Below, in pieces: positions 1 to 11,496 of a stretch of DNA of 11,496 nt. Origin of the DNA: a virus (taxonomy: Duplodnaviria; Heunggongvirae; Uroviricota; Caudoviricetes); the IMG/VR virus record IMGVR_UViG_2541047847_000003, positions 1 through 11,496 of that record; one strand, written 5' to 3'. Below the pieces are notes generated by a model, which saw only the letters and a program-made list of their open reading frames with translations, did no database searches and was not told the origin of the DNA. Position 1 is the first letter of the stretch. Every line of letters begins with the position of its first letter. The translations under genes and the position numbers were made by a program.

Positions 1-95
1 AGTTTGCTCCTGCCATAACGTGAAGAAGCAATGACCTGGTGGTCCGTGACTTCCCTACGCTGGCATTATCCAGATCAGGTGATACGGGTATTTCT
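1..95 (-). promoter_or_regulatory. thiM: 3' part of the thiM TPP riboswitch (aptamer 3' half plus expression platform); thiM start codon lies just beyond the left edge
   Basis: Reverse complement of 1..95 reads AGAAAUACCCGUAUCACCUGAUCUGGAUAAUGCCAGCGUAGGGAAGUCACGGACCACCAGGUCAUUGCUUCUUCACGUUAUGGCAGGAGCAAACU, which matches the well-studied E. coli thiM thi-box leader as I recall it. Confidence 0.85.
82..95. other. attL core: 14-bp ATACGGGTATTTCT, identical to the copy at 11083..11096
   Basis: Exact 14-bp direct repeat at both island ends; flanking bases differ on both sides (81 g vs 11082 a; 96 t vs 11097 c). The repeat lies inside the riboswitch sequence. Confidence 0.75.
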
Positions 96-160
96 TACTA
101 ATTACTTTTACCAGTTGATAATAAATAAGTTTTTAAGAACGCATAAATTAAAAACCTCAG

Positions 161-235
161 AACTGACCACACAACTGACCACACATTTTGTTGAAGCTCT
201 ACGAACAACGACGAACAATAACAAACAAAAGGGAA
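161..235. repeat. attL-proximal arm block: tandem AACTGACCACAC x2 followed by ACGAACAA-type repeats; homologous to 10929..10995
   Basis: AACTGACCACAC at 161..172 and 173..184. The roughly 75-bp block is about 80% identical (by eye) to the block beside int at the other end, in the same orientation. Confidence 0.6.
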
Positions 236-1134
236 ATTTGCTGGTGGTTTTGCTTAACCGTTATCATTTTTCGGCTATCCGTCATGAAGCTGGTGGATGA
301 TCACGGATAACCAGGCATCCACAGCGCCTTAAAAAGCTGAACCCGACAAACATTTCTGCTTATCGGGTCCGATCGCTCTTTCTGCTCGTGGCAGATGAGT
401 TTATTGGGAGAGGCGGAAACATTGTATCAGGCTATCCCCTTTCTGTGCTGATTTGCATAGTTGTATATAGCTGTGCGTCCACCAGACACGCAGGAATGGA
501 GTTTGTGAGGAACTATAAATCCTGCGCAAATTTTCCCGGCCCACTCAAATTGAGTTTTCCGAAAATATCAACGGCTTAGGCCAAAGCCCGAAAAAGGGCT
601 TTGTAAAAAATTAACCTAATACGGTCGCTTTAACCTACGGTAATCGTTCTGCTTCGGTGTGTGTCCCCTCTGCGGCCATCATGACCATGCCATAACAAAA
701 ACCCCATATTCGTGGTTTTTCTGTGTCGGGGCTATTCTGCTGTTGCCGTGCTGGTGGATATTCTCCGGTATGCGACTCCCCATATCGGCATCAGGCCCAC
801 CAGCGTGAAGCGTTTTTCATTTTTCGCGGGTATAAAAAATTGATGGGGCTGGCAGTCCGGAAGACGTCAGGGTACAGAGATTTGACCCGCCCCTCCCTGT
901 GCATAAGCACAATAAGTAACAGAAGGCGGAATTCCGCCCTCGGTACTCACATATGAGAAACGATATTTCTTCCACCGATACCCTTTATTTGGGTATCGCG
1001 AGTAAGCCCCAAAATCTGGGTGTTACTCTTACTACCCAAACTACGGGTGGTTTCCGTAGTTTCATGGTCGAGTTGCAGATCTGCAACTCACCCACCAGCC
1101 AACGCAATTTTGCGTTATCGGGAATATCAGGAAT

Positions 1135-1419
1135 CTACCGCCGCAACCGTTCCGGCTTCCTCCACTGGTAAGTATTTTTCGCGCTCTCCCTCCGTTGTTG
1201 AGAACGGCGACGGTATGCCAGCAACTCAAGGACTCTGATCCGTATGTCGCGCATATCCACGCCGTTAAGCTCGATACCGTCACGGCGCATCATCTCAGCC
1301 ACCACACGCGCGTAATTTTCGGCTATCACGCTGTCCGGCTGCGTGGCCTCCTGTTTGCTTGATGGTTGTTTGATTCCGGTAACGCGGCGGATTAATCCCA
1401 GCAATTCAGATTCTGTCAT
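1135..1419 (-). CDS. Small protein immediately downstream of terS; possible lambda gpFI-like packaging accessory protein
   Basis: ORF of 94 aa. N-terminus MTESELLGLIRRVTG resembles lambda FI MTKDELIARLRSLG, and VVAEMMRRDG resembles the FI C-terminal VAAEMTERG, both from memory. The C-terminal 40 aa are basic and low-complexity. Confidence 0.45.
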   Translation of the reverse strand: MTESELLGLIRRVTGIKQPSSKQEATQPDSVIAENYARVVAEMMRRDGIELNGVDMRDIRIRVLELLAYRRRSQQRRESAKNTYQWRKPERLRR

Positions 1420-1430
1420 AGTGCGCTACG

Positions 1431-1958
1431 TTACTTGTCTTTATTCGGCTGCAACTTATCCGGCACATTTCCGGTAGTTTCCATCAGGTAATCAGCCAGT
1501 ATCTGCGGGAGGTTGTCGTCAACTCCGGCACTGGCATTACAGGCTTTAGCCACTTCCTTTTTAAGTCCATCCAGCATAGCCGGAGTCATCTGTGGGAAGC
1601 GCCTTTGCATGGTAAGCGGCAGACTGTCCATGATAGATGAAATCTGACTCGCCAGTTTGGAAAGAACATACATACAAAACTCTGTATCAATAACGTCGCC
1701 GCGTTCGCGCTCGTTTTTAAGCTCCTGCGCCTCTGCCTGTGCTGTCAGTAATCTGATCCTGACGCGTAAAAGTTCATCGTCATCAATATCGCCCGTTTCG
1801 TTTGTAATCTGACTAATTGCATTGTTAACCCGATTATCTATTACACTGGCAACATCATAGAATGCCTCACGGCCCTTACGCTCGACGGGAATCACTCCCC
1901 ACTTATCAAACGCAGTGGCGCTTACACGGCAACTTTTTGCCATGTTTTTTTTGTTCAT
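1431..1958 (-). CDS. Terminase small subunit, lambda Nu1 family
   Basis: Translation aligns with lambda Nu1: RLLTAQAEAQELKNERERGDVIDTEFCMYVLSKLASQISSIMDSLPLTMQRRFP versus RLTRAQADAQELKNARDSAEVVETAFCTFVLSRIAGEIASILDGLPLSVQRRFP. N-terminal DNA-binding region is more diverged. Start chosen at the ATG giving MNKKN; the ORF track extends to 1982. Confidence 0.85.
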   Translation of the reverse strand: MNKKNMAKSCRVSATAFDKWGVIPVERKGREAFYDVASVIDNRVNNAISQITNETGDIDDDELLRVRIRLLTAQAEAQELKNERERGDVIDTEFCMYVLSKLASQISSIMDSLPLTMQRRFPQMTPAMLDGLKKEVAKACNASAGVDDNLPQILADYLMETTGNVPDKLQPNKDK

Positions 1959-2083
1959 CAGGTGCAATTTCATTGATACCACAACTTAATTACTGTTTCA
2001 GGTTGGTGTATTGATTGTATTTTTCTCTTCTTATTCATAGAGATAGAGCGAACAACAAAACCACCACCAGCCCCCTGAAAATG

Positions 2084-2148
2084 CTCATAAATAGCGAAAA
2101 CCCGCGAGGTCGCCGCCCCGTAGCCTGCCGGATCGCCGGAAAGGACCC
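2084..2148 (-). other. Lambda-type cos site (cosQ-like and cosN; 12-nt cohesive-end sequence at 2107..2118)
   Basis: Reverse complement of 2084..2120 is ACGGGGCGGCGACCTCGCGGGTTTTCGCTATTTATGA, identical to the lambda cosN junction and left end. 2119..2148 matches the lambda right-end cosQ region at about 27 of 30 positions. Lies about 130-150 bp upstream of terS, as in lambda. Confidence 0.85.
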
Positions 2149-2174
2149 GCCAGCCAGAACGGGCCCTAATTTCA

Positions 2175-2558
2175 TCAACCAATCAACTTATAGCGACCAT
2201 CCCGTGCATTGCGACGTACACGCTCAATCTTGAGGCATAGCGCCGCATCTGGCTTTTTGGGGACAGGTACGCGGCAATATTCAGAAGCTCGAGGAATATT
2301 GTTTATCCAGTCGATCACTTCACTTAAATACCAGGCCTTACGCCCTTCCGTAACCTGTACGCGTTCGGGGAACTCTCCACGAGCCTCAAGGTTTAGCAAT
2401 GTGCGACGGCTAAGGGTAGTAAGTTCCATCACCTGATTCATATCAACAAGGCGTTCACTTAAACGCATTTTGTCAGCAATAGCCTTTAATTCCTCTACTG
2501 CTGGATCCGGATACATCATTTCGGCAATTGGCTTAAGGTCATTGTAATGATTCTGCAT
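2175..2558 (-). CDS. AlpA/Vis-family HTH protein (second copy), 127 aa
   Basis: Central segment LTTLSRRTLLNLEARGEFPERVQVTEGRKAWYLSEVIDWI matches the AlpA-type HTH pattern. GGGGGA Shine-Dalgarno 4 nt upstream of the ATG; sits between the decoration gene and cos. Confidence 0.65.
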   Translation of the reverse strand: MQNHYNDLKPIAEMMYPDPAVEELKAIADKMRLSERLVDMNQVMELTTLSRRTLLNLEARGEFPERVQVTEGRKAWYLSEVIDWINNIPRASEYCRVPVPKKPDAALCLKIERVRRNARDGRYKLIG

Positions 2559-2569
2559 TGTATCCCCCT

Positions 2570-2911
2570 TTACACACGAGCCAGCGGCTGAACAGAAATA
2601 CCTGAGCCAACAAACGCGGCAACCTTTGCCGACAGTTCTCTTACAGACTCAGGCCAGTTCAGAGCATCAACATTTAAAACACCTGTCTTATAAACCTGTG
2701 CCTGTGTTTTTTTCGCTGTGTCGATTTGTACAGCGGAAACATAAACCGCTTTGCCTGCGCTCGTTCCATCCCATACCACTAGCGCACCAGTTGCATCTTC
2801 CTGCATCAGTGGCGTAAACGCAGGTATTACCCCTTTATTGGCTGAAAATATCCCCAGCGTAGTAACCAGTGCTTCAGTGCCAGACATGAGTTCAGTGTAA
2901 TGAGTAGCCAT
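2570..2911 (-). CDS. Head decoration protein, lambda gpD-like
   Basis: 113 aa. FTPLMQEDATGALVVWDGTSAGKAV parallels lambda gpD [25 protein letters not shown]; similar length. GGGGGAG Shine-Dalgarno 9 bp after the MCP stop. Confidence 0.8.
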   Translation of the reverse strand: MATHYTELMSGTEALVTTLGIFSANKGVIPAFTPLMQEDATGALVVWDGTSAGKAVYVSAVQIDTAKKTQAQVYKTGVLNVDALNWPESVRELSAKVAAFVGSGISVQPLARV

Positions 2912-2920
2912 TGCTCCCCC

Positions 2921-3967
2921 TTAGCCAATGCGAACGGTAACAAAACGATTGATGCGGGCCGGTATTGGCTGTGGTGCTGAATGTGTCTGCACATATTCAA
3001 TAGCCGGATCACCAGGCACAATATAGTTTTTCGGTGCAAGTTCGGCTTTAGTCAGCCCCATCCGAATTAGCTCCGGATCCTGAATACCGCCATAAGCGAC
3101 AATCCCCTGAAGAGCCGTATTGCCAAGCACCATCAAATCAGGATCAAGGAAATATTTTTCAGTTCCGTCCTCGTCGGTATAACGCCCGCTGTAAACAACA
3201 ATCGCAACATCGCCCATATACCCTTTAAAACTCACCGAATCACCAAGGTCTTTAAGGGCCGTTTCCAGTTCGGAATTAGAACCTCGACGGGTATCCAGAG
3301 CCTCTTTTACAGCTCTGAATGAGCGGTATTTTTTCCATACATTGCCGCCCATAATAATGATATTAGTGACTCCCTCACTAAATTCTGCGTAGCTCTCAAT
3401 ATCATCATTTGGATCAAAAGATCCTTTATCCTTACCTGACCACTCAGCACCGCCAGACTGAGTGATGATATTTTGTGGTTTAATATTCCAGTCCAGTTCA
3501 TAACGTTCAATACCATCGCCCTCAATGATATTTTTCCCCGTTGTGATTGCCTGAACAGCAAGCCATTCAATACGTGCACGTATAGCTTTAGCCTGATTTA
3601 CAATCGCCTGTTTAACTTTAATATTACGCGCCCCAAAAGCATTGTATTGTTCAGGTGATACACCAGCAGGGCGCACAGCTAACTTATTTGGATCAATGCT
3701 GCTTTTCGGTTTCATATAGCCAGGGCGAATTGTTTTTGATTCGTATCCCTCATCTCGTGAAACTTTACTGCCCACCATAGGAGAGCAAAACGCCGCGATC
3801 GGGATATTTGGATCGTCGATCGTATCAAGAATAATGTCTCTCGATTCAAACATTACCGAGCGAGTGAAAAACAAACTGGTAAACAACGCATTTAATTTTT
3901 TTTGCACATCTTCAGCATTAGCCACCTGCACAAGCTGTGTAGGCGAATATAAATCAACCATACTCAT
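2921..3967 (-). CDS. Major capsid protein, lambda gpE family
   Basis: Long collinear similarity to lambda gpE, for example NIITQSGGAEWSGKDKGSFDPNDDIESYA and AVKEALDTRRGSNSELETALKDLG and GDVAIVVYSG. Start set at MSMVDLY (lambda begins MSMYTT) with AAGAGG just upstream; the ORF track start at 4048 is probably an upstream extension. Confidence 0.9.
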   Translation of the reverse strand: MSMVDLYSPTQLVQVANAEDVQKKLNALFTSLFFTRSVMFESRDIILDTIDDPNIPIAAFCSPMVGSKVSRDEGYESKTIRPGYMKPKSSIDPNKLAVRPAGVSPEQYNAFGARNIKVKQAIVNQAKAIRARIEWLAVQAITTGKNIIEGDGIERYELDWNIKPQNIITQSGGAEWSGKDKGSFDPNDDIESYAEFSEGVTNIIIMGGNVWKKYRSFRAVKEALDTRRGSNSELETALKDLGDSVSFKGYMGDVAIVVYSGRYTDEDGTEKYFLDPDLMVLGNTALQGIVAYGGIQDPELIRMGLTKAELAPKNYIVPGDPAIEYVQTHSAPQPIPARINRFVTVRIG

Positions 3968-4132
3968 CCTCTTTACATTCATTACAAATAATTGTGAATA
4001 TATTCTATTACCGATGTCTGCTATGCGAATACATGCAACCAAGTGCAATGTTGTATAAAATCTGCCGTGACAACTTCAGTGCTGATAATTCGTGTTAATG
4101 TATTTACTTCCTTTGGTCGGGATTTATGTAGC

Positions 4133-4171
4133 ATGCCGGAAAATCTATTTTCTTCCGGCATTTTTTTATTT
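4133..4171 (+). terminator. Intrinsic-terminator-like hairpin with T-run on the plus strand
   Basis: ATGCCGGAA (4133..4141), 11-nt loop, TTCCGGCAT (4153..4161), then TTTTTTTATTT. On the minus strand the hairpin has no U-run after it. Confidence 0.45.
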
Positions 4172-4178
4172 GCAGAAT

Positions 4179-4601
4179 TTAAAACGGTATATTATCGCCG
4201 TACGGATCATCATTCCCCGACTGTTGTTTTGCCCTGTTCAGTGCGTCAGTAGCCTGGCCCTGTTGACCTTTTTTGCCGCCCGGTCGCGCCGTTCTGGCAC
4301 TGATTACACTGTCTGCGATAACCTGCCAGCCCTGCCGCGTTTCGCCGTTCTGGCCTGTCCACTGGCTTACCTGCATGTTACCCGCCACGCTCACCAGTTC
4401 GCCTTTGTGGTGTTTTGCCAGTGCGTCGGCCTGTCTGCCAAACGCCAGGACGGATAACCACATCGTCGCCGTTCCGTCATCTGCCTGGCTGCACGGAAGT
4501 GGGACCGCCATACTCGCCATCGTCATTTGTGTACCCTTGCTGGTGGTCTTTAACTGCGGGTCAGCCACCAGCCGCCCGTAAGCCGCTATCTGTGCTGTCA
4601 T
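4179..4601 (-). CDS. Single-stranded DNA-binding protein (SSB-like)
   Basis: 140 aa with an OB-fold-like pattern (WLSVLAFGRQADALAKHHKGELVSVAGNMQVSQWTGQNGETRQ), a Gly/Gln-rich linker and a C-terminal DDPYGDNIPF resembling the SSB DDDIPF tail. Confidence 0.7.
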   Translation of the reverse strand: MTAQIAAYGRLVADPQLKTTSKGTQMTMASMAVPLPCSQADDGTATMWLSVLAFGRQADALAKHHKGELVSVAGNMQVSQWTGQNGETRQGWQVIADSVISARTARPGGKKGQQGQATDALNRAKQQSGNDDPYGDNIPF

Positions 4602-4843
4602 GCTGTCTGCTCTCCGGTTTTAACGTTGATGGTTGTCACCTGTTCCGCTTCGGCAATCTCCCGTTCTGTCAGCGTGGCAAAGTTTGCAGCTGCCGTTGTC
4701 ATGAATGAGCTAATCAGTTCGGGATGTGCTTTCGCATATCCTTCCCCGGCGTTGCGGTCGATGATTTTTATCGACACCCTTAACCAGTGTTCCGTCAAAT
4801 CAAGGGCGTGCGATTGTGATTTTTTTGTGTGCTTCGCTGTCAT
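4598..4843 (-). CDS. Hypothetical protein, 81 aa, translationally coupled to ssb
   Basis: ORF whose stop overlaps the ssb start by 4 bp (ATGA); no recognisable motifs. Confidence 0.45.
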   Translation of the reverse strand: MTAKHTKKSQSHALDLTEHWLRVSIKIIDRNAGEGYAKAHPELISSFMTTAAANFATLTEREIAEAEQVTTINVKTGEQTA

Positions 4844-4895
4844 AGGCTTTATCTCACAGCAGTAAATTAAAATTTTTGCGTTTTAACCCTTCACC

Positions 4896-5116
4896 TGTTC
4901 ACCTTTTGATATTTTATCTTTTAATTCATAATGTTAAGGGGTGAACAGTTTCACAAAAACTATTCACCAACTGTTCACCACTGTTCACCCTTGAAGCTCA
5001 ATAAACAATCAAAAAGGTGAACAGTGAATAGTTTGGTGAACAGTTCATAAATAACTGTTCACCCTATAACATACTGATACAAAAGATATTTATGACAGGG
5101 TGAACAGTGGTGAACA
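4896..5116. repeat. Origin-like iteron cluster: about 10 copies of TGTTCACC/GGTGAACA in both orientations with AT-rich spacers (P4 ori/crr type)
   Basis: TGTTCACC at 4896, 4972, 4982, 5056; GGTGAACA at 4940, 5016, 5035, 5099, 5109; variants at 4961 and 5024. Immediately downstream of the alpha-like gene. Confidence 0.85.
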
Positions 5117-5130
5117 GTTATTCCATAAGT

Positions 5131-6948
5131 TTAATTTTTGCTATCGTCATTAGTGACCGATACACATGATGGCATCCAGTCTTCTGATTCCTCCGTCAGT
5201 GTCACGTTTGAACGCAAACCGTGCTTCGTTTTCCGTTTCATATACTCCCTGCCATATTCCGCCATTGCCCCCGGCATATCTTTACCGAAGCGCGTCAGTG
5301 TTACAGGTTTACCAAACCCATGTGCCCTCATATAAGCCAGATAGGCATGATAGAGATACCTGCGTGGGCTGAATGGCACAATTTCAGCATTACCCACTAA
5401 CAGGCCATCACACATTACCGACGCCATGAGATAGCCGCAGAAGTCCACCAGCGAATCCCCCTCTCGCTTTATCGCCAGTGCTTCTTCAGATTTCTGCTGC
5501 TCATATAACAGGCGTCTGGCTTCGTCCTGGTCAGCAAACCGTGTAAGCAGATGGCGAATCACTACCGCCAACTCACCTTCTATTTTTTCCGCCAGCATTG
5601 GATCGCGTTCGTTCTCCGGTACAACTTCCGAAAAATTGAATATCACCCGACGACGTGAGATCCCCCCGCTGCGGTCACTGAATGACATGGCGTTATTGTT
5701 AACCGCCAGCACTACTGCCGGAATACGCGTTGAGTAGGGGGCTTTGTGTTTCGGGTCAATTGCCACCTTGTCACCGCCTGTAATGGCCTTAATTCCTGCC
5801 CCATCACCAGCGTAGCGGGTCATATCCGGCATGATAATCAGCGAAAAGCCAACCACTAACGCGCGTTCCCTTGCATCTTCCAGCGCCTTCATGCTTGCCG
5901 ATACTGTGTTGGCCTTACCCGCCAGCATGGTGCAAATCTCCGCCATCACGCTTTTACCACTTCCCCCTGGACCTGTTACCTCAATGAATAACTGCCAGTC
6001 GTACCGGTTCGCCAGCACCATGAATAATGCAGCCAGTACGCGATCCGCCTTGCGGTCATTCTCAGCCACCGAACGGCGTAACCACTTCCAGAAATTCGGC
6101 GCATGTGTTGCCAGCGTTTCCCCCTCTGCTGGTGGGCTGAAAGGTAATTCACTGGCAATTAACAACCAGTCGTTTTTGTTATGCTCCCGAAAATTACCTG
6201 TTCTGGTATCAAATACCCCGTTACTGAATCCAATCAGGTTACGGGCTGTATTCCCCATTACAGGCAAACTTAACTTCATGGTATCGACCGCCGATTTAAT
6301 GGCGTTCTGCGAATAGCTGATCTCTGCATCAATGAAAATCTGCGCCATAGCTCGCTGTAATTCTTTATCCTGTACTGGCTCCCATACAACGCCGTTGTAA
6401 TGGTGAACAGTGTCAGAGTCAGCATGAATCGCCAGTTCACCGCCATAATGTGCCAGGAGAACTTCGCCGCGTTGACTTGCTCCCATCTGGTTAAGCGCCA
6501 GTGATGAAGCGTTATCGTCTTTTACCCGCTCTTTTTTCTTTACAGGCAGTTCAACTACCTTTTTCTTTTCCGCCAGCTCTGCCCGTTCACGTTCCAGATA
6601 TTCGCGCCAGTTCTCCCGTTTCTGGCTGTGCATTCCTTCAGGGTAATAATCAGCATCCCTGACACCTGCCGCTGCCAGTTTCTGCCCGATGGTATTAACA
6701 AGCCCCGGACGCAATAACCCCGCCTGATAGAGACGCACGCGATAGCGTCCGTCCGGTACGATTTGCAGGTTGTCCAGTTCGGCAAGTTGTTGCTCTCCAA
6801 GCCAGACAGGAGGCACGTTATCGCCAGCCAGTCGCCCGTCCTGTTCCTGCCACTGCTTCGCATGTGCCCACGCATCACTACCCGCAAAAATGATGACTTC
6901 CGTCATTTTGTCACGCGGCTGGTGTTTTAAATTTGGCGCTTTTTTCAT
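5131..6948 (-). CDS. P4 alpha-like replication protein (primase/helicase family, D5-type P-loop NTPase)
   Basis: Walker A GPGGSGKS and a Walker B-like hydrophobic stretch; adjacent TGTTCACC iterons. Start set at the ATG giving MKKAPNL (GGAGAGAG upstream); the ORF track start at 6963 is a GTG. No primase catalytic motif was identified by eye. Confidence 0.8.
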   Translation of the reverse strand: MKKAPNLKHQPRDKMTEVIIFAGSDAWAHAKQWQEQDGRLAGDNVPPVWLGEQQLAELDNLQIVPDGRYRVRLYQAGLLRPGLVNTIGQKLAAAGVRDADYYPEGMHSQKRENWREYLERERAELAEKKKVVELPVKKKERVKDDNASSLALNQMGASQRGEVLLAHYGGELAIHADSDTVHHYNGVVWEPVQDKELQRAMAQIFIDAEISYSQNAIKSAVDTMKLSLPVMGNTARNLIGFSNGVFDTRTGNFREHNKNDWLLIASELPFSPPAEGETLATHAPNFWKWLRRSVAENDRKADRVLAALFMVLANRYDWQLFIEVTGPGGSGKSVMAEICTMLAGKANTVSASMKALEDARERALVVGFSLIIMPDMTRYAGDGAGIKAITGGDKVAIDPKHKAPYSTRIPAVVLAVNNNAMSFSDRSGGISRRRVIFNFSEVVPENERDPMLAEKIEGELAVVIRHLLTRFADQDEARRLLYEQQKSEEALAIKREGDSLVDFCGYLMASVMCDGLLVGNAEIVPFSPRRYLYHAYLAYMRAHGFGKPVTLTRFGKDMPGAMAEYGREYMKRKTKHGLRSNVTLTEESEDWMPSCVSVTNDDSKN

Positions 6949-7244
6949 TTCTGCTCTCTCCACGCGGCAATCATGTTTTTCAGTTCCTGTAGTTTTTTAT
7001 CCACATCCACACGTGACACATGGTTATTTCTGGAAGTCGGGATTTCCCGCCGGAATCTGCAAATAAAGATCTCCACGTTCAGCGAACTAAGAAATGAATA
7101 GCCATCACGAATAAAATACACACGGTCAAACATCAGTTCTTTTACCGTTACTCTGTTACCGTTCTTATCCAGATAAATAGCGCCGGGGATAATTTTGGGG
7201 TGTGCATAACCGCTGGCAGTCAAGCCAGATAAATATGTTCTCAT
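6945..7244 (-). CDS. Hypothetical protein, 99 aa, translationally coupled to the alpha-like gene
   Basis: Stop overlaps the alpha start (ATGA); no recognisable motifs. Confidence 0.55.
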   Translation of the reverse strand: MRTYLSGLTASGYAHPKIIPGAIYLDKNGNRVTVKELMFDRVYFIRDGYSFLSSLNVEIFICRFRREIPTSRNNHVSRVDVDKKLQELKNMIAAWREQK

Positions 7245-7250
7245 GATTAT

Positions 7251-7571
7251 TTATCCCCGATTTGAATCAGTATTCGCTTTCTTTATGGCATTTAATGCAT
7301 CTGTGGCATTTTCAATGGTGCACCGTAACGAAATATCAAACTGCCCAAGCATTGCCAGTAACAAACCGATATTACCCATATCAATGCGCATAGCCTTTTC
7401 GTCATAGTCCTCATTTTCTGACGCATGCCACATCAGACTACCAATTGACGCAACAGCCATTGATATATTGTCAGTAGCCCCATCCGCAGCGGAATAAACC
7501 TTTTTAGCAATATCATGCTCACAGTTAAAATGCGGATTAATCAGGTACTGGTAATTTGACATATCAGGCAT
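7251..7571 (-). CDS. Hypothetical protein, 106 aa
   Basis: ORF in the same operon; its start overlaps the stop of the upstream 67-aa ORF (ATGCCTGA). Confidence 0.55.
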   Translation of the reverse strand: MPDMSNYQYLINPHFNCEHDIAKKVYSAADGATDNISMAVASIGSLMWHASENEDYDEKAMRIDMGNIGLLLAMLGQFDISLRCTIENATDALNAIKKANTDSNRG

Positions 7572-7767
7572 GGCACACCCCCTGACGAATACGGGCGGCG
7601 AATACCATCACGCAGCCAGCCGGGGATTGCTGGCGTGCTTCCTGTTCGCTGGTGGCCACGATGTGAATCACGCGCGGTTGTGCGGTGCTCAGGGCGATAA
7701 AACGCCAGATGTATTTATTCAGGTCGTGCGAGTCCCGCCCTTGCGGGTGTGTGGTATGATTTCTCAT
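7564..7767 (-). CDS. Hypothetical small protein, 67 aa, first gene of the replication operon
   Basis: Internal ATG of the 320-aa track ORF, preceded by GAGG; the sequence upstream in that frame looks non-coding. Stop is coupled to the next gene. Confidence 0.45.
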   Translation of the reverse strand: MRNHTTHPQGRDSHDLNKYIWRFIALSTAQPRVIHIVATSEQEARQQSPAGCVMVFAARIRQGVCHA

Positions 7768-7863
7768 AGCTACCTCGATACGCTTTCTATCGTTGGTGGT
7801 TAGAAGCCCGGTTAGTGTTAGCGCACTGCCGGGTTTCGTCGTTTCTGCACCTTGCATCAACAA

Positions 7864-7917
7864 GGTGTTGAACACCAATTTAAGCCTAGGTGTTAAACAC
7901 GTCAAGTGTTGAACACT
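7864..7917. promoter_or_regulatory. Three operator-like inverted repeats (GGTGTTGAACACC, GGTGTTAAACAC, AGTGTTGAACACT) in a divergent promoter region
   Basis: Repeats at 7864..7876, 7889..7900 and 7905..7917. The third overlaps a candidate -35 (TTGAAC) placed 17 bp from CATACT for the plus-strand gene. Confidence 0.6.
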
Positions 7918-7966
7918 TATTTTTTTTCCTGCATACTGCATTTGTTTTTTGTAAGGGGTACACAAC

Positions 7967-8146
7967 ATGGCGACAAAAGCAGTAAACGCAAAATCACAAA
8001 CAGTTGCGGCAAGGGTTCCGCATGAAGTTATGAACAATGTTGAGGCGGTAAAAATGCCTGGTGAAAGTACAGGGCAGTTTGTAACAGCAGCATTAAAGCG
8101 AGAAGTTGAATACCGCCAGCGTCGCAAGGCCAAAGAGCAGGAGTAA
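7967..8146 (+). CDS. Small ribbon-helix-helix-like protein, 59 aa; candidate repressor
   Basis: Below the ORF-track length cutoff. AGGGG Shine-Dalgarno 8 nt upstream. Pattern QTVAARVPHEVMNNVEAV...GESTGQFVTAALKRE fits a beta-strand/helix/helix RHH layout. Confidence 0.5.
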   Translation: MATKAVNAKSQTVAARVPHEVMNNVEAVKMPGESTGQFVTAALKREVEYRQRRKAKEQE

Positions 8147-8203
8147 CCATCACCAGCGCCGTGGTGCGGTGAACTGTGGCGCACAGGGTTACAGGTATCT
8201 ACG

Positions 8204-8383
8204 ATGACTGACAAATCATTAAAGAAATTATCCTCATCCAAGAAAAAACAACGCAAAAATGCGGTAAACGAACATGAACCGGAGAGATTCGCACCATGTG
8301 CGTTTGTCCTTGAGAAGTACCTTAAAGAGTATTCTAGGAAAATACGCTCATTGCAGGCATGGCAGCGAATCGAGCCAGACTGA
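8204..8383 (+). CDS. Hypothetical small basic protein, 59 aa
   Basis: ORF found by hand downstream of the RHH-like gene and before the plus-strand terminator; weak Shine-Dalgarno. Confidence 0.3.
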   Translation: MTDKSLKKLSSSKKKQRKNAVNEHEPERFAPCAFVLEKYLKEYSRKIRSLQAWQRIEPD

Positions 8384-8447
8384 TAGCATTGCCCACCAGC
8401 CAACAACCTGGTATTCTGGATATGCTCAAGTTTAGTGTTATGCCACT

Positions 8448-8477
8448 GGCGACCGCCCTTGGTCGCCTTTGTTTTAT
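8448..8477 (+). terminator. Rho-independent terminator (plus strand)
   Basis: GGCGACC, loop GCCCTT, GGTCGCC, followed by TTTGTTTTAT. Confidence 0.6.
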
Positions 8478-8494
8478 GTGTCATAGCTCCCCCC

Positions 8495-8719
8495 CTACGC
8501 TGCCTTACCTGAATTAACGCGGTCACGGCTTTGCACCCAGTCCATAACTTCGGAAAGCAACCAGCCTACAGAACGCCCCCCAAGATTACGGCGAGACGGA
8601 AAGCCCCCTTTCTTCTCCAGTTCGTAGCGTGTAGTACGGCTGACGCCTGTTAACTTACGACATTCATCTTCACGAATTACGCGATCTGTTAGTGATTGAA
8701 ATTGTGTATTTTGATTCAT
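8495..8719 (-). CDS. alpA: AlpA-family transcriptional regulator / excisionase-like HTH protein
   Basis: 74 aa; RKLTGVSRTTRYELEKKGGFPSRRNLGGRSVGWLLSEVMDWV matches the AlpA/Vis-type HTH pattern; GAGGG Shine-Dalgarno. Confidence 0.8.
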   Translation of the reverse strand: MNQNTQFQSLTDRVIREDECRKLTGVSRTTRYELEKKGGFPSRRNLGGRSVGWLLSEVMDWVQSRDRVNSGKAA

Positions 8720-8822
8720 AAAAACACCCTCGAACGTAACCGAACAAGGGCATCTTATTTACCATAGCAGTTGGTGCAATATTGGAAAAATAAACTTTAT
8801 TCTAATTTATCGTTCTCCATGA

Positions 8823-9677
8823 TTAATTTTCATTAGATAACATTTTTCTTATTTTTTCTAAAGAATCGCTGCGCATTATTTTTTCTAAGAAGGGTTTTAC
8901 AGTCTGAGCAATAGCAAAGGTGTCCTTTTCACCATCAGGATACAAAGATACGGCAAGCACCCCTAATGAAATTTTTCTATCTGTAGACAACTCCCAAGAT
9001 AATAAGTCAATTAATGGGATTATCTTATAATCAATAATTTTACGTCGTATGCTCTCCCAACTTCCTGCAATTGGTTTGTCTGGCTCAACAATTGAAAGTT
9101 CACTACGCCATTTTGGTAATAGTTTTGTAAACGCTTCAATCAACTCATCATCTCTGTTATGTAGTAAGTCAACAGAAACAAGCATATTATCTAATGTATC
9201 AGAAAGGAGATTCACTGGTTCACGCATCACAGCCCAAAACATCCCATTATCTTCTGATATTAAACTTCCAACCATCTCATTATCTATGATGATTGGTTTA
9301 TCCTTCCAATATCCTCTTTCCGCAGTCAGTTTATTAATCATTGATATATCAAACCTTGTTACAGGTTTAATTCCATCATCATAACTTAGCTCAATTAACT
9401 TCGGCTGCACTTTATGGTCATATTCTTTTTGTTTATCACAAAACCAATCGTCTTCTTTCAGCTCTCCAAATGGATCCCCATAATTATTATGCAACGGGTA
9501 TTCAGCACCAAACATAAAACCATATTCAGGCATCTCAGAATGTTTCATTGTTAAATCATCTTGTCGCCAATATAATTGGCGAAATAGATCTTTATCCGAC
9601 AAGTTTTCTAGGCAATCATATTTGCCTAAATCAAATGACTTTGGTAAATCTTTTTTACTATTTACTTTTTTCGTCAT
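8823..9677 (-). CDS. Hypothetical 284-aa protein, AT-rich cargo gene immediately downstream of int
   Basis: Long ORF whose start overlaps the int stop by 4 bp. Visibly more AT-rich than the neighbouring genes (not computed). No motif I recognise. Confidence 0.7.
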   Translation of the reverse strand: MTKKVNSKKDLPKSFDLGKYDCLENLSDKDLFRQLYWRQDDLTMKHSEMPEYGFMFGAEYPLHNNYGDPFGELKEDDWFCDKQKEYDHKVQPKLIELSYDDGIKPVTRFDISMINKLTAERGYWKDKPIIIDNEMVGSLISEDNGMFWAVMREPVNLLSDTLDNMLVSVDLLHNRDDELIEAFTKLLPKWRSELSIVEPDKPIAGSWESIRRKIIDYKIIPLIDLLSWELSTDRKISLGVLAVSLYPDGEKDTFAIAQTVKPFLEKIMRSDSLEKIRKMLSNEN

Positions 9678-10894
9678 TGTATCCCTCTCAATATCACAAT
9701 ATTTTCATTATATCCTGCAATCATATCAAGACGCTCAACCCATAGATGCAGTGCGTCCCGTTTCGCCTGCAAATAGCGTGAATGGTTATAGGTTTTTTGC
9801 TGACCTGGCATCTGATGCGCTGTGATGTGCTCCACGATATGCGGATCGACACCTAAATCATTCAGCATAGTTGTAAACGTGTGTCGGAAATCATGCAGCG
9901 TCCAGTGTTCCTGCTTAAGCCGCTTATGCGCATTTCGTCCATATTGCGCCACCGTGGTATCTTTTTTCAGTTCGCCGAGTAATAACCCAGTGTGTGCGTT
10001 TTGCTCCACCAGCTTCTGAATGAACGGCAAAATACCATCAGGAATAGGTCGGAATATTGTTACCTTCGTTTTGCTGTGCTCTTTTGGCACTGTCCACAAC
10101 ATTTCTTTCAGATCCCATTCTTTGATCTCTGAAAGTCTGATCTCTGCCGTTCTGCACCCGAACACAATTAACAAGCGCATTAACGCACTGTAATAGGGAG
10201 CGAACACATCACCATCAATAGCGCGTAGAATTTCTTTTAGTTCGCTGTTGCTGTGCACTCTCTCGCGGATTTCTGCTCTCTTACCCACATCAGTAACGAT
10301 CAAATCGTCCAGGGCGTTGCTAAACGCGTAGCGCCGCCTGCGGCAAAACTTTAGCGCCTGTTTGCATGTCTGCATGACATGGCCCGCTGCTACTGGTGCT
10401 TTTTTTCGTACGCGGTCAAAACATGCGATCCACTGCCTTGTATCACACTTATCAAGGGGAATTGCCCCGATATGGCAAATGATGTGCTTATCCATACGCT
10501 GCACCAGCTTTATGTAATCTTTGCGGTTATCCTTCGCGTATTCCTCCAGCCAGTAGTTAATCGCTTCCTTCACCGTAACGGGTTTTAGTGCTTCCTGTAC
10601 TGTGGCGCACAACTCATACCGAGGGTTTTTACCCTCAGCCAGCCATGCCCGGCACTGTGTTCGCTTTTCCCTTGCAGATTTCAGCGACAATTCCGGGTAA
10701 GCCCCCAGCTTTAACCGCTCTGCGGCAACCTCACGGCCTCCCGTTCGGTACCGGAAATACCAGGTTAATTTACCTCCCTTTGAGTGTTTAATCTCCAGCC
10801 CGCCCCCGTCGGAGTAAAAACGTTCTTTTTCTGCCTGGACAGCCACCAATTTTTTTAACGTTGAATCGCTCAGTTTGTTTAGTGCTTTTCCCAC
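9674..10894 (-). CDS. int: Tyrosine recombinase, P4-type integrase family
   Basis: 406 aa. N-terminal arm-binding-type region (GGKLTWYFRYRTGGREV...LGAYPELSLKSAREK); C-terminal catalytic motifs HDFRHTF and YNHSRY; GTG start. Confidence 0.9.
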   Translation of the reverse strand: MGKALNKLSDSTLKKLVAVQAEKERFYSDGGGLEIKHSKGGKLTWYFRYRTGGREVAAERLKLGAYPELSLKSAREKRTQCRAWLAEGKNPRYELCATVQEALKPVTVKEAINYWLEEYAKDNRKDYIKLVQRMDKHIICHIGAIPLDKCDTRQWIACFDRVRKKAPVAAGHVMQTCKQALKFCRRRRYAFSNALDDLIVTDVGKRAEIRERVHSNSELKEILRAIDGDVFAPYYSALMRLLIVFGCRTAEIRLSEIKEWDLKEMLWTVPKEHSKTKVTIFRPIPDGILPFIQKLVEQNAHTGLLLGELKKDTTVAQYGRNAHKRLKQEHWTLHDFRHTFTTMLNDLGVDPHIVEHITAHQMPGQQKTYNHSRYLQAKRDALHLWVERLDMIAGYNENIVILRGIQ

Positions 10895-10928
10895 TATCAG
10901 ATCCTCTTTTCAGTCCTCCAGCCTCAAA

Positions 10929-10995
10929 AAACTGACCACACAACTGACCACACATTTCGCTGAAACTCGGCAAACAACAACGAACAGCAACAAAC
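10929..10995. repeat. int-proximal arm block: tandem AACTGACCACAC x2 plus CAACAACGAACA-type repeats; homologous to 161..235
   Basis: AACTGACCACAC at 10929..10940 and 10941..10952, about 30 bp upstream of the int start. Confidence 0.6.
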
Positions 10996-11082
10996 GAGAA
11001 AGCCAATTAAATCATTGTATATCAAACATATACACAAACAATCACGAACATCCCAGAACTACAAAAAACACTAAATGAGAAA

Positions 11083-11096
11083 ATACGGGTATTTCT
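11083..11096. other. attR core: ATACGGGTATTTCT
   Basis: Identical to 82..95; continuous on its right with chromosomal thiM leader sequence. Confidence 0.75.
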
Positions 11097-11127
11097 CAGC
11101 CTTCACAAAGAAGGGCACCCCGAGTCG
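11083..11127 (-). promoter_or_regulatory. thiM: 5' part of the thiM TPP riboswitch aptamer, separated from its 3' half by the island
   Basis: Reverse complement reads CGACUCGGGGUGCCCUUCUUUGUGAAGGCUGAGAAAUACCCGUAU, the 5' half of the thiM aptamer including the conserved CUGAGA element. Confidence 0.8.
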
Positions 11128-11223
11128 TTTGGTTGCGATAATAAATCGCAGAGGAGGATGGTAATGTCCAGCGCACGCGTTGTAAACGGGGAAAAACGGC
11201 GGTATTACAATAACGTTGTGAAA

Positions 11224-11496
11224 TTATTTGATATAAGAATCCAGCACCTTCAGAACGACATCCAGATCTTCTTCTCGTTTTAGCTCATCCCCCTGGTGAA
11301 CGATGTGTTCCGTCAGATGGCCTTTAATCACTTCCCGCATCAGACCGTTTACCGCGCCACGGATAGCAGCAATCTGTTGTAAAACTGCAGCGCATTCATG
11401 CGGTTCGTCGAGCATTTTCTTGAGCGCCACGACCTGGCCCTGAATCTTACTGGCACGCGCTTTCAGTTTCTGTTTATCACGGATTGTATGAGACAT
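11224..11496 (-). CDS. rcnR: Ni/Co-responsive transcriptional repressor RcnR (CsoR/RcnR family)
   Basis: 90-aa translation [61 protein letters not shown]... matches E. coli RcnR as I recall it; complete CDS ending at the window edge. Confidence 0.85.

Follow-up and report, generated by a model that had tools for sequence, protein, structure and literature searches.

Why does an Escherichia coli phage satellite keep a second AlpA-family protein inside its capsid operon? The question is raised by an 11,496-nt stretch of viral DNA (Caudoviricetes; positions 1 to 11,496 of IMG/VR record IMGVR_UViG_2541047847_000003), which we call the window. The window is an E. coli phage-inducible chromosomal island (PICI) of the Gram-negative EcCICFT073 kind, with capsid and decoration genes and a cos site (PMC6092414). 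Sequence comparison indicates that the island is related to EcCICFT073 and belongs to another late-module lineage. Typical E. coli PICIs are described as having a single AlpA (PMC11773190, the EcCIMP1 paper). The original prediction reported two AlpA-family proteins and suggested that the second, here named AlpA2, could be a late-gene regulator or a cos-proximal DNA-binding factor rather than an excisionase. Our comparison supports the late-regulator idea best and supplies it with a concrete candidate operator, the functional steps being read from sequence. We see about an even chance that AlpA2 is a dedicated transcriptional regulator of the capsid/late operon that encodes it, probably an activator or autoregulator.

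AlpA2 and Its Homologs

The open reading frame (ORF) of AlpA2 encodes 127 aa from an ATG start on the minus strand (2175-2558), as had been predicted. A GGGGGA Shine-Dalgarno sequence stands before the start codon, and the gene begins 11 nt past the decD stop. A domain search bore out the family assignment. Pfam Phage_AlpA (PF05930) matched residues 36-85 over profile positions 2-51 of 51 with 34.9 bits (gathering score 21), and PHROG 2790 ("excisionase and transcriptional regulator") covered residues 11-109 (E = 1.8e-48). The extensions noted earlier were also found, with ~35 aa N-terminal and ~42 aa C-terminal to the Pfam core, and both are conserved. The second family member in the island, AlpA1 (74 aa, 8495-8719, minus strand), is 35% identical to AlpA2 over 60 aa, in agreement with the claim of two such proteins. 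The AlpA core of AlpA2, a winged helix-turn-helix (wHTH), maps to 2304-2453 on the minus strand and contains a near-invariant recognition helix (LSRRTLLNLEARG) and the wing GRKAWYLSEV. Across 21 homologs of 50-95% identity, WINNIP (84-89), P100, P103, L107, K110, R113, and R115 were invariant.

An AlphaFold2 (AF2) model built on a 46-sequence alignment reached an overall predicted local distance difference test (pLDDT) score of 76.5, with the wHTH core above 90. A run on a shallow 21-sequence alignment gave a pLDDT of 54.7 and was not used. The core of the model consists of helices at residues 40-47 and 51-60, strands at 67-77, and a helix at 78-86. Outside the core, residues 19-33 of the model form an N-terminal helix, and on the C-terminal side a disordered linker leads to a basic helix at residues 105-119. 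Foldseek gave the GIsul2 excisionase (8c3t) as the top match, with a root-mean-square deviation of 0.9 Å over 52 columns and 44% identity; this entry was also the sole PDB sequence match by phmmer (E = 1.6e-10). Further structural neighbors were the RdfS excisionase (8dgl), BldC (6ama), Pukovnik Xis (4j2n), and MerR-type DNA-binding domains. Matches to the DNA-binding domains of small terminase (TerS) and redirecting phage packaging (Rpp) proteins (7lw0 and 6hn7_B) were weak (E ~0.15). The domain match and the model place AlpA2 in the AlpA family, with a predicted winged-HTH fold of the excisionase/MerR-like kind.

Full-length homologs (50-95% identity) were found in Enterobacterales, including Enterobacteriaceae, Serratia, and Buttiauxella. 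The genera and species with such homologs include Escherichia, Enterobacter, Citrobacter, Klebsiella aerogenes, Salmonella, Pluralibacter, Trabulsiella, Kosakonia, Kluyvera, Superficieibacter, Cedecea, Scandinavium, Buttiauxella, and Serratia. Among 1.84 billion representative proteins, the C-terminal extension was covered by only about four 50%-identity clusters, and the remaining 943 matches comprised the generic AlpA core only. Of 5426 complete E. coli genomes, 398 (~7%) carried the gene, and a scan of genome contigs yielded only four loci. A tblastn search of 50,697 phage records with AlpA2 gave no match. As judged from these searches, the full-length homologs form a narrow group within Enterobacterales, the gene is real and under selection, and AlpA2 is satellite-specific. 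NCBIfam contained no family for AlpA2, AlpA1, TerS, orf94, or the EcCICFT073 protein c1501. Existing annotation describes AlpA2 only as "AlpA family" or "HTH transcriptional regulator", and our literature searches found no paper describing it.

AlpA2 Is Fixed in the Capsid Operon

The operon opens with capE, a gpE-like major capsid gene of 346 aa (2921-3961, minus strand; Pfam Phage_cap_E, 5.9e-41). The second gene, decD, encodes a gpD-like head decoration protein (2570-2911, minus strand; Pfam HDPD, 4.6e-15; PHROG 49). The capE start was taken from the RefSeq annotation of E. coli strain C21 and from the homolog starts; a 375-aa TTG-start version in the ORF list was rejected as an over-extension on the same grounds. 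Loci from about 10 enterobacterial genera and 78 informative IMG/VR contigs were compared. The order capE-decD-AlpA2, with AlpA2 third, was fixed in every locus examined, and the gaps were about 6-37 nt, mostly 9-14 nt. These loci came from Escherichia, Buttiauxella, Scandinavium, Pluralibacter, Kosakonia, Kluyvera, Superficieibacter, Cedecea, Serratia, and metagenomic contigs.

Around this block, the integrase, the att site, the replicase, AlpA1, and the packaging solution after cos were variable. The integrases of AlpA2-type islands were only 41-66% identical, and the replicases were of D5 or DUF927 type. The att sites lay at the thiM/rcnR locus, at fis, or, in many cases, at codon ~80 of a prophage major capsid gene (gene E). 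Islands within the prophage major capsid gene are known as helper-embedded PICIs (PMC10111431). In the embedded islands L002, L003-L006, L013, L016, L036, L131, and L303, a capE fragment beginning at residue ~77-83 was seen at the 3' flank, and the helper-embedded AlpA2-type islands bring their own intact capE.

A Candidate Operator Upstream of capE

A candidate operator made of direct repeats with 10-bp phasing was found upstream of capE (4023-4057 in the window, minus strand), at the same position in all AlpA2-type loci. Every such locus had 3-5 repeats, with the units TATAC/TTGCAC/TTGCAC/TTGCAY in most lineages. The window units are TATAC (4057-4053), TTGCAC (4048-4043), TTGCAT (4038-4033), and a degenerate TTCGCAT (4029-4023). 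The tandem TTGCAY pair occurs a single time in the window, with 0.01 occurrences expected by chance. From the last upstream repeat to a -10-like hexamer (TAnnAT), the distance was always 24-25 nt, and there was no -35. In the window, the promoter scan placed this hexamer, TAGAAT, at 4002-4007 on the minus strand, 25 nt downstream of the TTGCAT repeat, as part of a putative capE promoter. An extended -10 (TGnTAnnAT) was present in 8 of 12 lineages. Conservation of the capE leader between lineages was confined to the repeats, the -10, and the Shine-Dalgarno sequence, which constitute a phylogenetic footprint.

Each island locus had just one such array, and none was found in its alpA1/int region, at its att ends, or in its cos region. 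No TTGCAY-type array, a motif itself inferred from sequence, was seen near the window att ends (161-188 and 10930-10957). The possibility that the repeats are ori iterons was rejected; the iterons (CTGTTCACC at 4850-5130) are distinct. An IMG/VR scan with TTGCAYN4TTGCAYN4TTGCAY returned at least 120 loci, and five PICIs were among the matches listed. Because few of the scanned matches are PICIs, the motif has no diagnostic value by itself away from capE.

Between ssb and the capE promoter, a hairpin with a 9-bp stem (4133-4161), which has equivalents in other loci, lies at the early/late boundary. Its T-run is on the antisense side and an A-run precedes the stem on the gene strand, which makes read-through by sense transcripts probable. 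As a canonical intrinsic terminator, this conserved hairpin would serve antisense transcription only.

Array and AlpA2 followed the same capE lineage. Among 160 IMG/VR loci, the window-type lineage had AlpA2 in 78 of 79 cases and the array in 79 of 79, the exception having a truncated decD, and the EcCICFT073-type lineage had neither AlpA2 (0/70) nor the array (0/70). In this sister lineage (EcCICFT073 and EcCIIHE3034), capE and decD are ~55% identical to those of the window. Its third slot is occupied by c1501, an acidic 137-aa protein that we rejected as an AlpA2 ortholog because it is unrelated. For this reason, published data on c1501::tetA and EcCICFT073 do not bear on AlpA2. Upstream of capE, all 80 of 80 loci of the sister lineage (L012 24960-27497 for EcCICFT073 and L302 for EcCIIHE3034) carry orf68 and 50 of 80 a PerC-family regulator, and this lineage may use another late-regulation scheme. 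Of the two late-module lineages, only the EcCICFT073/IHE3034 type is represented among the experimentally characterized islands that we checked. The combination of capE-decD-alpA2 with the TTGCAY array provides a marker separating the two late-module lineages. The comparison points to a conserved promoter operator that is inherited together with the regulator gene, as for an operon-specific regulator.

Which Protein Binds the Array

No DNA-binding protein other than AlpA2 was co-inherited with the array. The AlpA2 recognition helix and wing (LSRRTLLNLEARGEFP.RVQVT.GRKAWYLSEV) were nearly invariant wherever the repeats were TTGCAY. In Cedecea, AlpA2 carries R52G and A59K, and the repeats are TTGTAC; the Serratia type has TTAGAC/TTGTGC/TTGTAC. 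Buttiauxella and Scandinavium have a common AlpA2 and common repeat cores (TATAC/TGTGC/TGTAA) with different spacers. An altered AlpA2 helix or wing goes with altered repeats, a correlation of the pattern expected of a regulator and its operator. AlpA1 was disfavored as the array binder, since its recognition helices differ (SRTTRYELEKKG versus ANSTRWKLEKEG) between loci that have TTGCAY in common and no array is found at its own promoter. On this evidence, AlpA2 would be the protein bound at the array.

Several points weigh against this interpretation. The AlpA2-array association is confounded with the capE lineage, and because AlpA2, array, and capE are inherited as one block, it is no proof of binding. 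Alternatively, the array could be occupied by AlpA1 or by a factor of the host or the helper phage. The parallel changes in repeats and recognition helix are qualitative, and general divergence could account for them. The -10 of the window is without the TG extension, its array has only two perfect TTGCAY units, and the sequence is compatible with either sign of regulation, activation or repression. The adjacency of AlpA2 and cosQ, conserved in most lineages, is explained by this interpretation only as a module boundary. Furthermore, deletion of capE or decD in EcCICFT073 left transfer and interference unaffected (PMC6092414), so the biological output of the capsid operon is itself unclear.

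A rival view is that AlpA2 would be a recombination directionality factor (excisionase), leaving AlpA1 as the transcriptional master regulator. The label of the best PHROG match and the closest solved structures, the GIsul2 excisionase and RdfS, are in line with such a role. In EcCIMP1, alpA_1 is described as an excisionase though dispensable for island excision, and alpA is the regulator (PMC11773190). However, AlpA2 lies within the capsid operon, separated from int by 7 kb and from the far att site by 2 kb, and AlpA1 holds the conserved alpA position downstream of int. The near-invariant HTH of AlpA2 accompanies the divergent integrases at their different att sites, showing no linkage of AlpA2 to the integration module, and neither att end has a repeat array. 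Sister islands that have no AlpA2, EcCICFT073 among them, excise with int and alpA alone (PMC6092414). We consider an excisionase role distinctly unlikely. The earlier claim of a late-gene regulator rather than a simple Xis gains comparative support, in that AlpA2 is locked to the capsid operon and not to integrase or att, and its candidate operator precedes an activator-type promoter; regulation itself stays a proposal.

A Proposed Late Switch

If AlpA2 acts as a regulator of the capsid operon, several monomers would occupy the 3-5 phased repeats head-to-tail, roughly from -38 to -75. Both BldC and lambda Xis bind direct repeats in this head-to-tail manner. The N-terminal helix and the basic C-terminal helix of the two extensions could provide cooperativity, contact with RNA polymerase, or both. 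AlpA2 would control a promoter with an (extended) -10 and without a -35, and activation would be the most likely outcome. The output of the promoter would be capE-decD-alpA2, followed by read-through across cos into terS-orf94. Given the location of alpA2 within the operon and an upstream hairpin that is no terminator for the sense strand, early read-through could supply the first AlpA2. AlpA1-started early transcripts would provide this first AlpA2, which would then amplify late expression by positive feedback.

The same array and synteny evidence would fit a protein of opposite sign. AlpA2 could be an array-bound repressor or negative autoregulator that limits or silences the capsid operon, or it could have its main targets in the helper phage and act in interference. 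A promoter with an extended -10 does not necessarily need an activator, and P4 Vis reportedly both represses and activates late promoters. However, the repeats are located upstream of the core promoter, at about -38 to -75, and do not cover the -10 or the transcription start. Neither lambda nor the CFT073 lambdoid prophage contained a comparable array, apart from a two-unit chance match inside ral. Repression or interference is, in our judgment, unlikely.

The cos Site and Packaging Genes

The original prediction placed AlpA2 in the capsid operon directly upstream of cos, and cosN indeed lies 57 nt past the AlpA2 stop. This cosN (GGGCGGCGACCT, 2107-2118, minus strand) is the exact lambda cohesive-end sequence. 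The GGGTCCT at 2142-2148 (minus strand), 27 nt after the AlpA2 stop, is presumably cosQ, as judged from alignment to the lambda cos junction. The ~75 bp from cosQ to cosN are ~95% identical to lambda. The alignment diverges in cosB, after about +35, leaving an island-specific cosB-like region (1983-2106, minus strand) unlike lambda cosB.

Three packaging solutions were found behind the capE-decD-alpA2-cosQ/cosN block. The window (1983-2148) has its own cosB together with a Nu1-like TerS; other islands have a lambda-like cosB without TerS, or Rpp-like genes (L004 7345-7700; L007-L009 after AlpA2). The cosN sequence also varied among AlpA2-type islands (GGGCGGCGACCT, GGGCGTCAGGCG, and GGGCGGAAGGCG). 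Together, the varied packaging regions and cosN variants suggest module shuffling by recombination at cos. In Pluralibacter-type islands, an Rpp-like gene rather than an evident cos site comes directly after AlpA2. This 131-aa ORF begins 4 nt after AlpA2 (L008 7389-7784; L009 1848-2243), matches RppA residues 49-126 only, and appears to be without the N-terminal wHTH. Behind it, L009 carries a full RppA homolog (70% identity) at 2392-2811.

This diversity bears on the idea of AlpA2 as a cos-associated packaging accessory factor. Such a factor would act near cosQ/cosN or on terminase and favor island packaging or termination, by analogy to the accessory roles of HNH or IHF or to the wHTH of Nu1 and Rpp. 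The short distance to cosQ recurs in Escherichia, Buttiauxella, Serratia, and metagenomic lineages, and AlpA2 falls into one MerR-like wHTH class with the TerS and Rpp domains, the Foldseek matches being the weak ones to 7lw0 and 6hn7 given above. However, the stretch from AlpA2 to cos has no array or island-specific motif and is simply lambda-like cosQ/cosN. AlpA2 stays nearly invariant alongside all three packaging solutions and the several cosN variants, and in Pluralibacter-type islands it stands before an Rpp-like gene instead of an evident cos. Packaging is also efficient in EcCICFT073-type islands, which have no AlpA2. A module boundary is the simpler account of the adjacency, with recombination at the conserved cosN explaining the mosaic downstream region. 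A role at cos is very unlikely, and that half of the original prediction finds no backing here. A combined form, in which AlpA2 is a late activator closing the positive feedback and also acts at cosQ/cosN or on terminase through its extensions, would couple late transcription to island packaging; we give it only a slim chance. If true, it would be a dual-function wHTH of a kind not yet described for PICIs.

AlpA2 is not the terminal gene of the island, since two genes that the original prediction did not mention follow cos on the same strand. The first, terS (1431-1973, minus strand), encodes a Nu1-like small terminase of 180 aa, as assigned by Pfam (Phage_Nu1, 1.1e-24), PHROG 57 (5.7e-54), and RefSeq annotation. 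No terminator was detected in the AlpA2-terS interval, and terS is probably in the same transcription unit as AlpA2. A PDB sequence search with TerS found nothing, and no Rpp homolog was detectable for it. The second, orf94 (1135-1419, minus strand; PHROG 1561), shares 68% identity with the last gene of EcCICFT073. The ~950 bp from orf94 to the att repeat held no convincing gene.

Layout of the Island

All island genes are carried on the minus strand. A 28-bp direct repeat (AACTGACCACACAACTGACCACACATTT), the putative att core, marks both island ends (161-188 and 10930-10957) and itself holds a tandem AACTGACCACAC unit. The same island sits between thiM and rcnR in E. coli strain C21. The flanking chromosomal gene in the window (11224-11496) is rcnR, encoding the Ni/Co repressor, in agreement with the C21 context. 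In strain 51489, the best match among E. coli, an IS1B element interrupts the module.

The integrase gene (9674-10894, minus strand) is first in gene order, and a DUF6387 gene comes next. AlpA1 is a canonical AlpA (Pfam 4.8e-16) and is 66% identical to the AlpA of EcCICFT073. It occupies the conserved PICI integration zone downstream of the integrase, here with the DUF6387 gene between them. A sigma-70-like promoter (TTGCAC, 16 nt, TAAGAT) was seen upstream of alpA1, at 8740-8790. The lone TTGCAC in it is not kept in other islands and is probably just a -35. After AlpA1 come small genes, DUF4222, and the D5-type primase/helicase (5131-6963, minus strand). A 320-aa minus-strand ORF at 7564-8526 is probably spurious; the annotation of its counterpart region in C21 shows several small genes, among them one for an Icd-like division inhibitor, a YlcI/YnfO gene on the opposite strand, and a pseudogene. 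Just after the primase gene, dense iterons in both orientations (CTGTTCACC/GGTGAACAG) at ~4850-5130 flank AT-rich DNA, and this region is likely the island ori. In gene order, orf81 lies between the iterons and the SSB gene (4179-4601, minus strand). Within the window, no Rfam family reached its gathering score.

Significance and Comparison with Known Systems

Our literature searches found no description of the timing of capsid and packaging gene expression in Gram-negative PICIs; only the int-adjacent AlpA is described, as master switch. If the proposal for AlpA2 and its operator is true, a separate late regulatory step operates in a widespread PICI lineage, which extends from the E. coli genomes counted above to many other Enterobacterales and to helper-embedded PICIs. 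AlpA2 and the capE promoter form a directly testable promoter-regulator pair. AlpA2 also serves as a warning that "AlpA family" annotations hide functionally distinct subfamilies.

Among known systems, Vis (ORF88) of P4 is a satellite-encoded homologous wHTH, 38% identical to AlpA2 over 72 aa (E = 4e-12). Unlike AlpA2, Vis has 88 aa and no C-terminal extension, and it is also an excisionase at attP. It heads the leftward late operon by the immunity region, whereas AlpA2 lies inside the capsid operon. The closer homolog of Vis in the window is AlpA1 (45% identity), not AlpA2. A passage in PMC2603039, citing Polo et al. 1996, reports this AlpA-family protein as a regulator of P4 late promoters.

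The original prediction also invoked the late activator of P4, and this analogy holds for architecture, not for sequence. Delta lies inside the capsid-related sid-delta-psu operon, which it activates. Delta and the P2 late activator Ogr are zinc-finger proteins recognizing a dyad at about -55, unlike a wHTH on direct repeats. BLASTP of AlpA2 against P4 delta gave E = 24 and no alignment, and AlpA was the only Pfam match of AlpA2; its P4 homolog is Vis.

BldC and lambda-type Xis resemble AlpA2 at the level of fold by Foldseek and in the predicted binding mode on 10-bp-phased direct repeats. They differ in having neither the N- nor the C-terminal helix of AlpA2, and apart from 8c3t there is no detectable sequence relationship beyond the fold. 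The DNA-binding domains of RppA/RppC and lambda Nu1 are of the same broad wHTH class and belong to the PICI packaging region. However, RppA is a separate gene (L012:27660-28094), and AlpA2 co-occurs with TerS, with Rpp-like genes, or with neither. A tblastn search with RppA matched other genes and never AlpA2, giving no sign of Rpp homology.

EcCIMP1 sets a precedent, as a single PICI that carries two AlpA paralogs of diverged function; its alpA_1 is on the opposite strand at the end of the island, and EcCIMP1 is without capsid or terminase genes (PMC11773190). The alpA of EcCICFT073 and AlpA1 are, like AlpA2, PICI-encoded proteins with PF05930 and are regulators. A canonical PICI AlpA has ~70 aa, lies by int, is induced by the helper, and is needed both to excise and to induce the island (PMC6092414). 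AlpA2, with 127 aa and 35% identity in the core, differs in its place in the late zone and in co-varying with the capsid module rather than the integration module.

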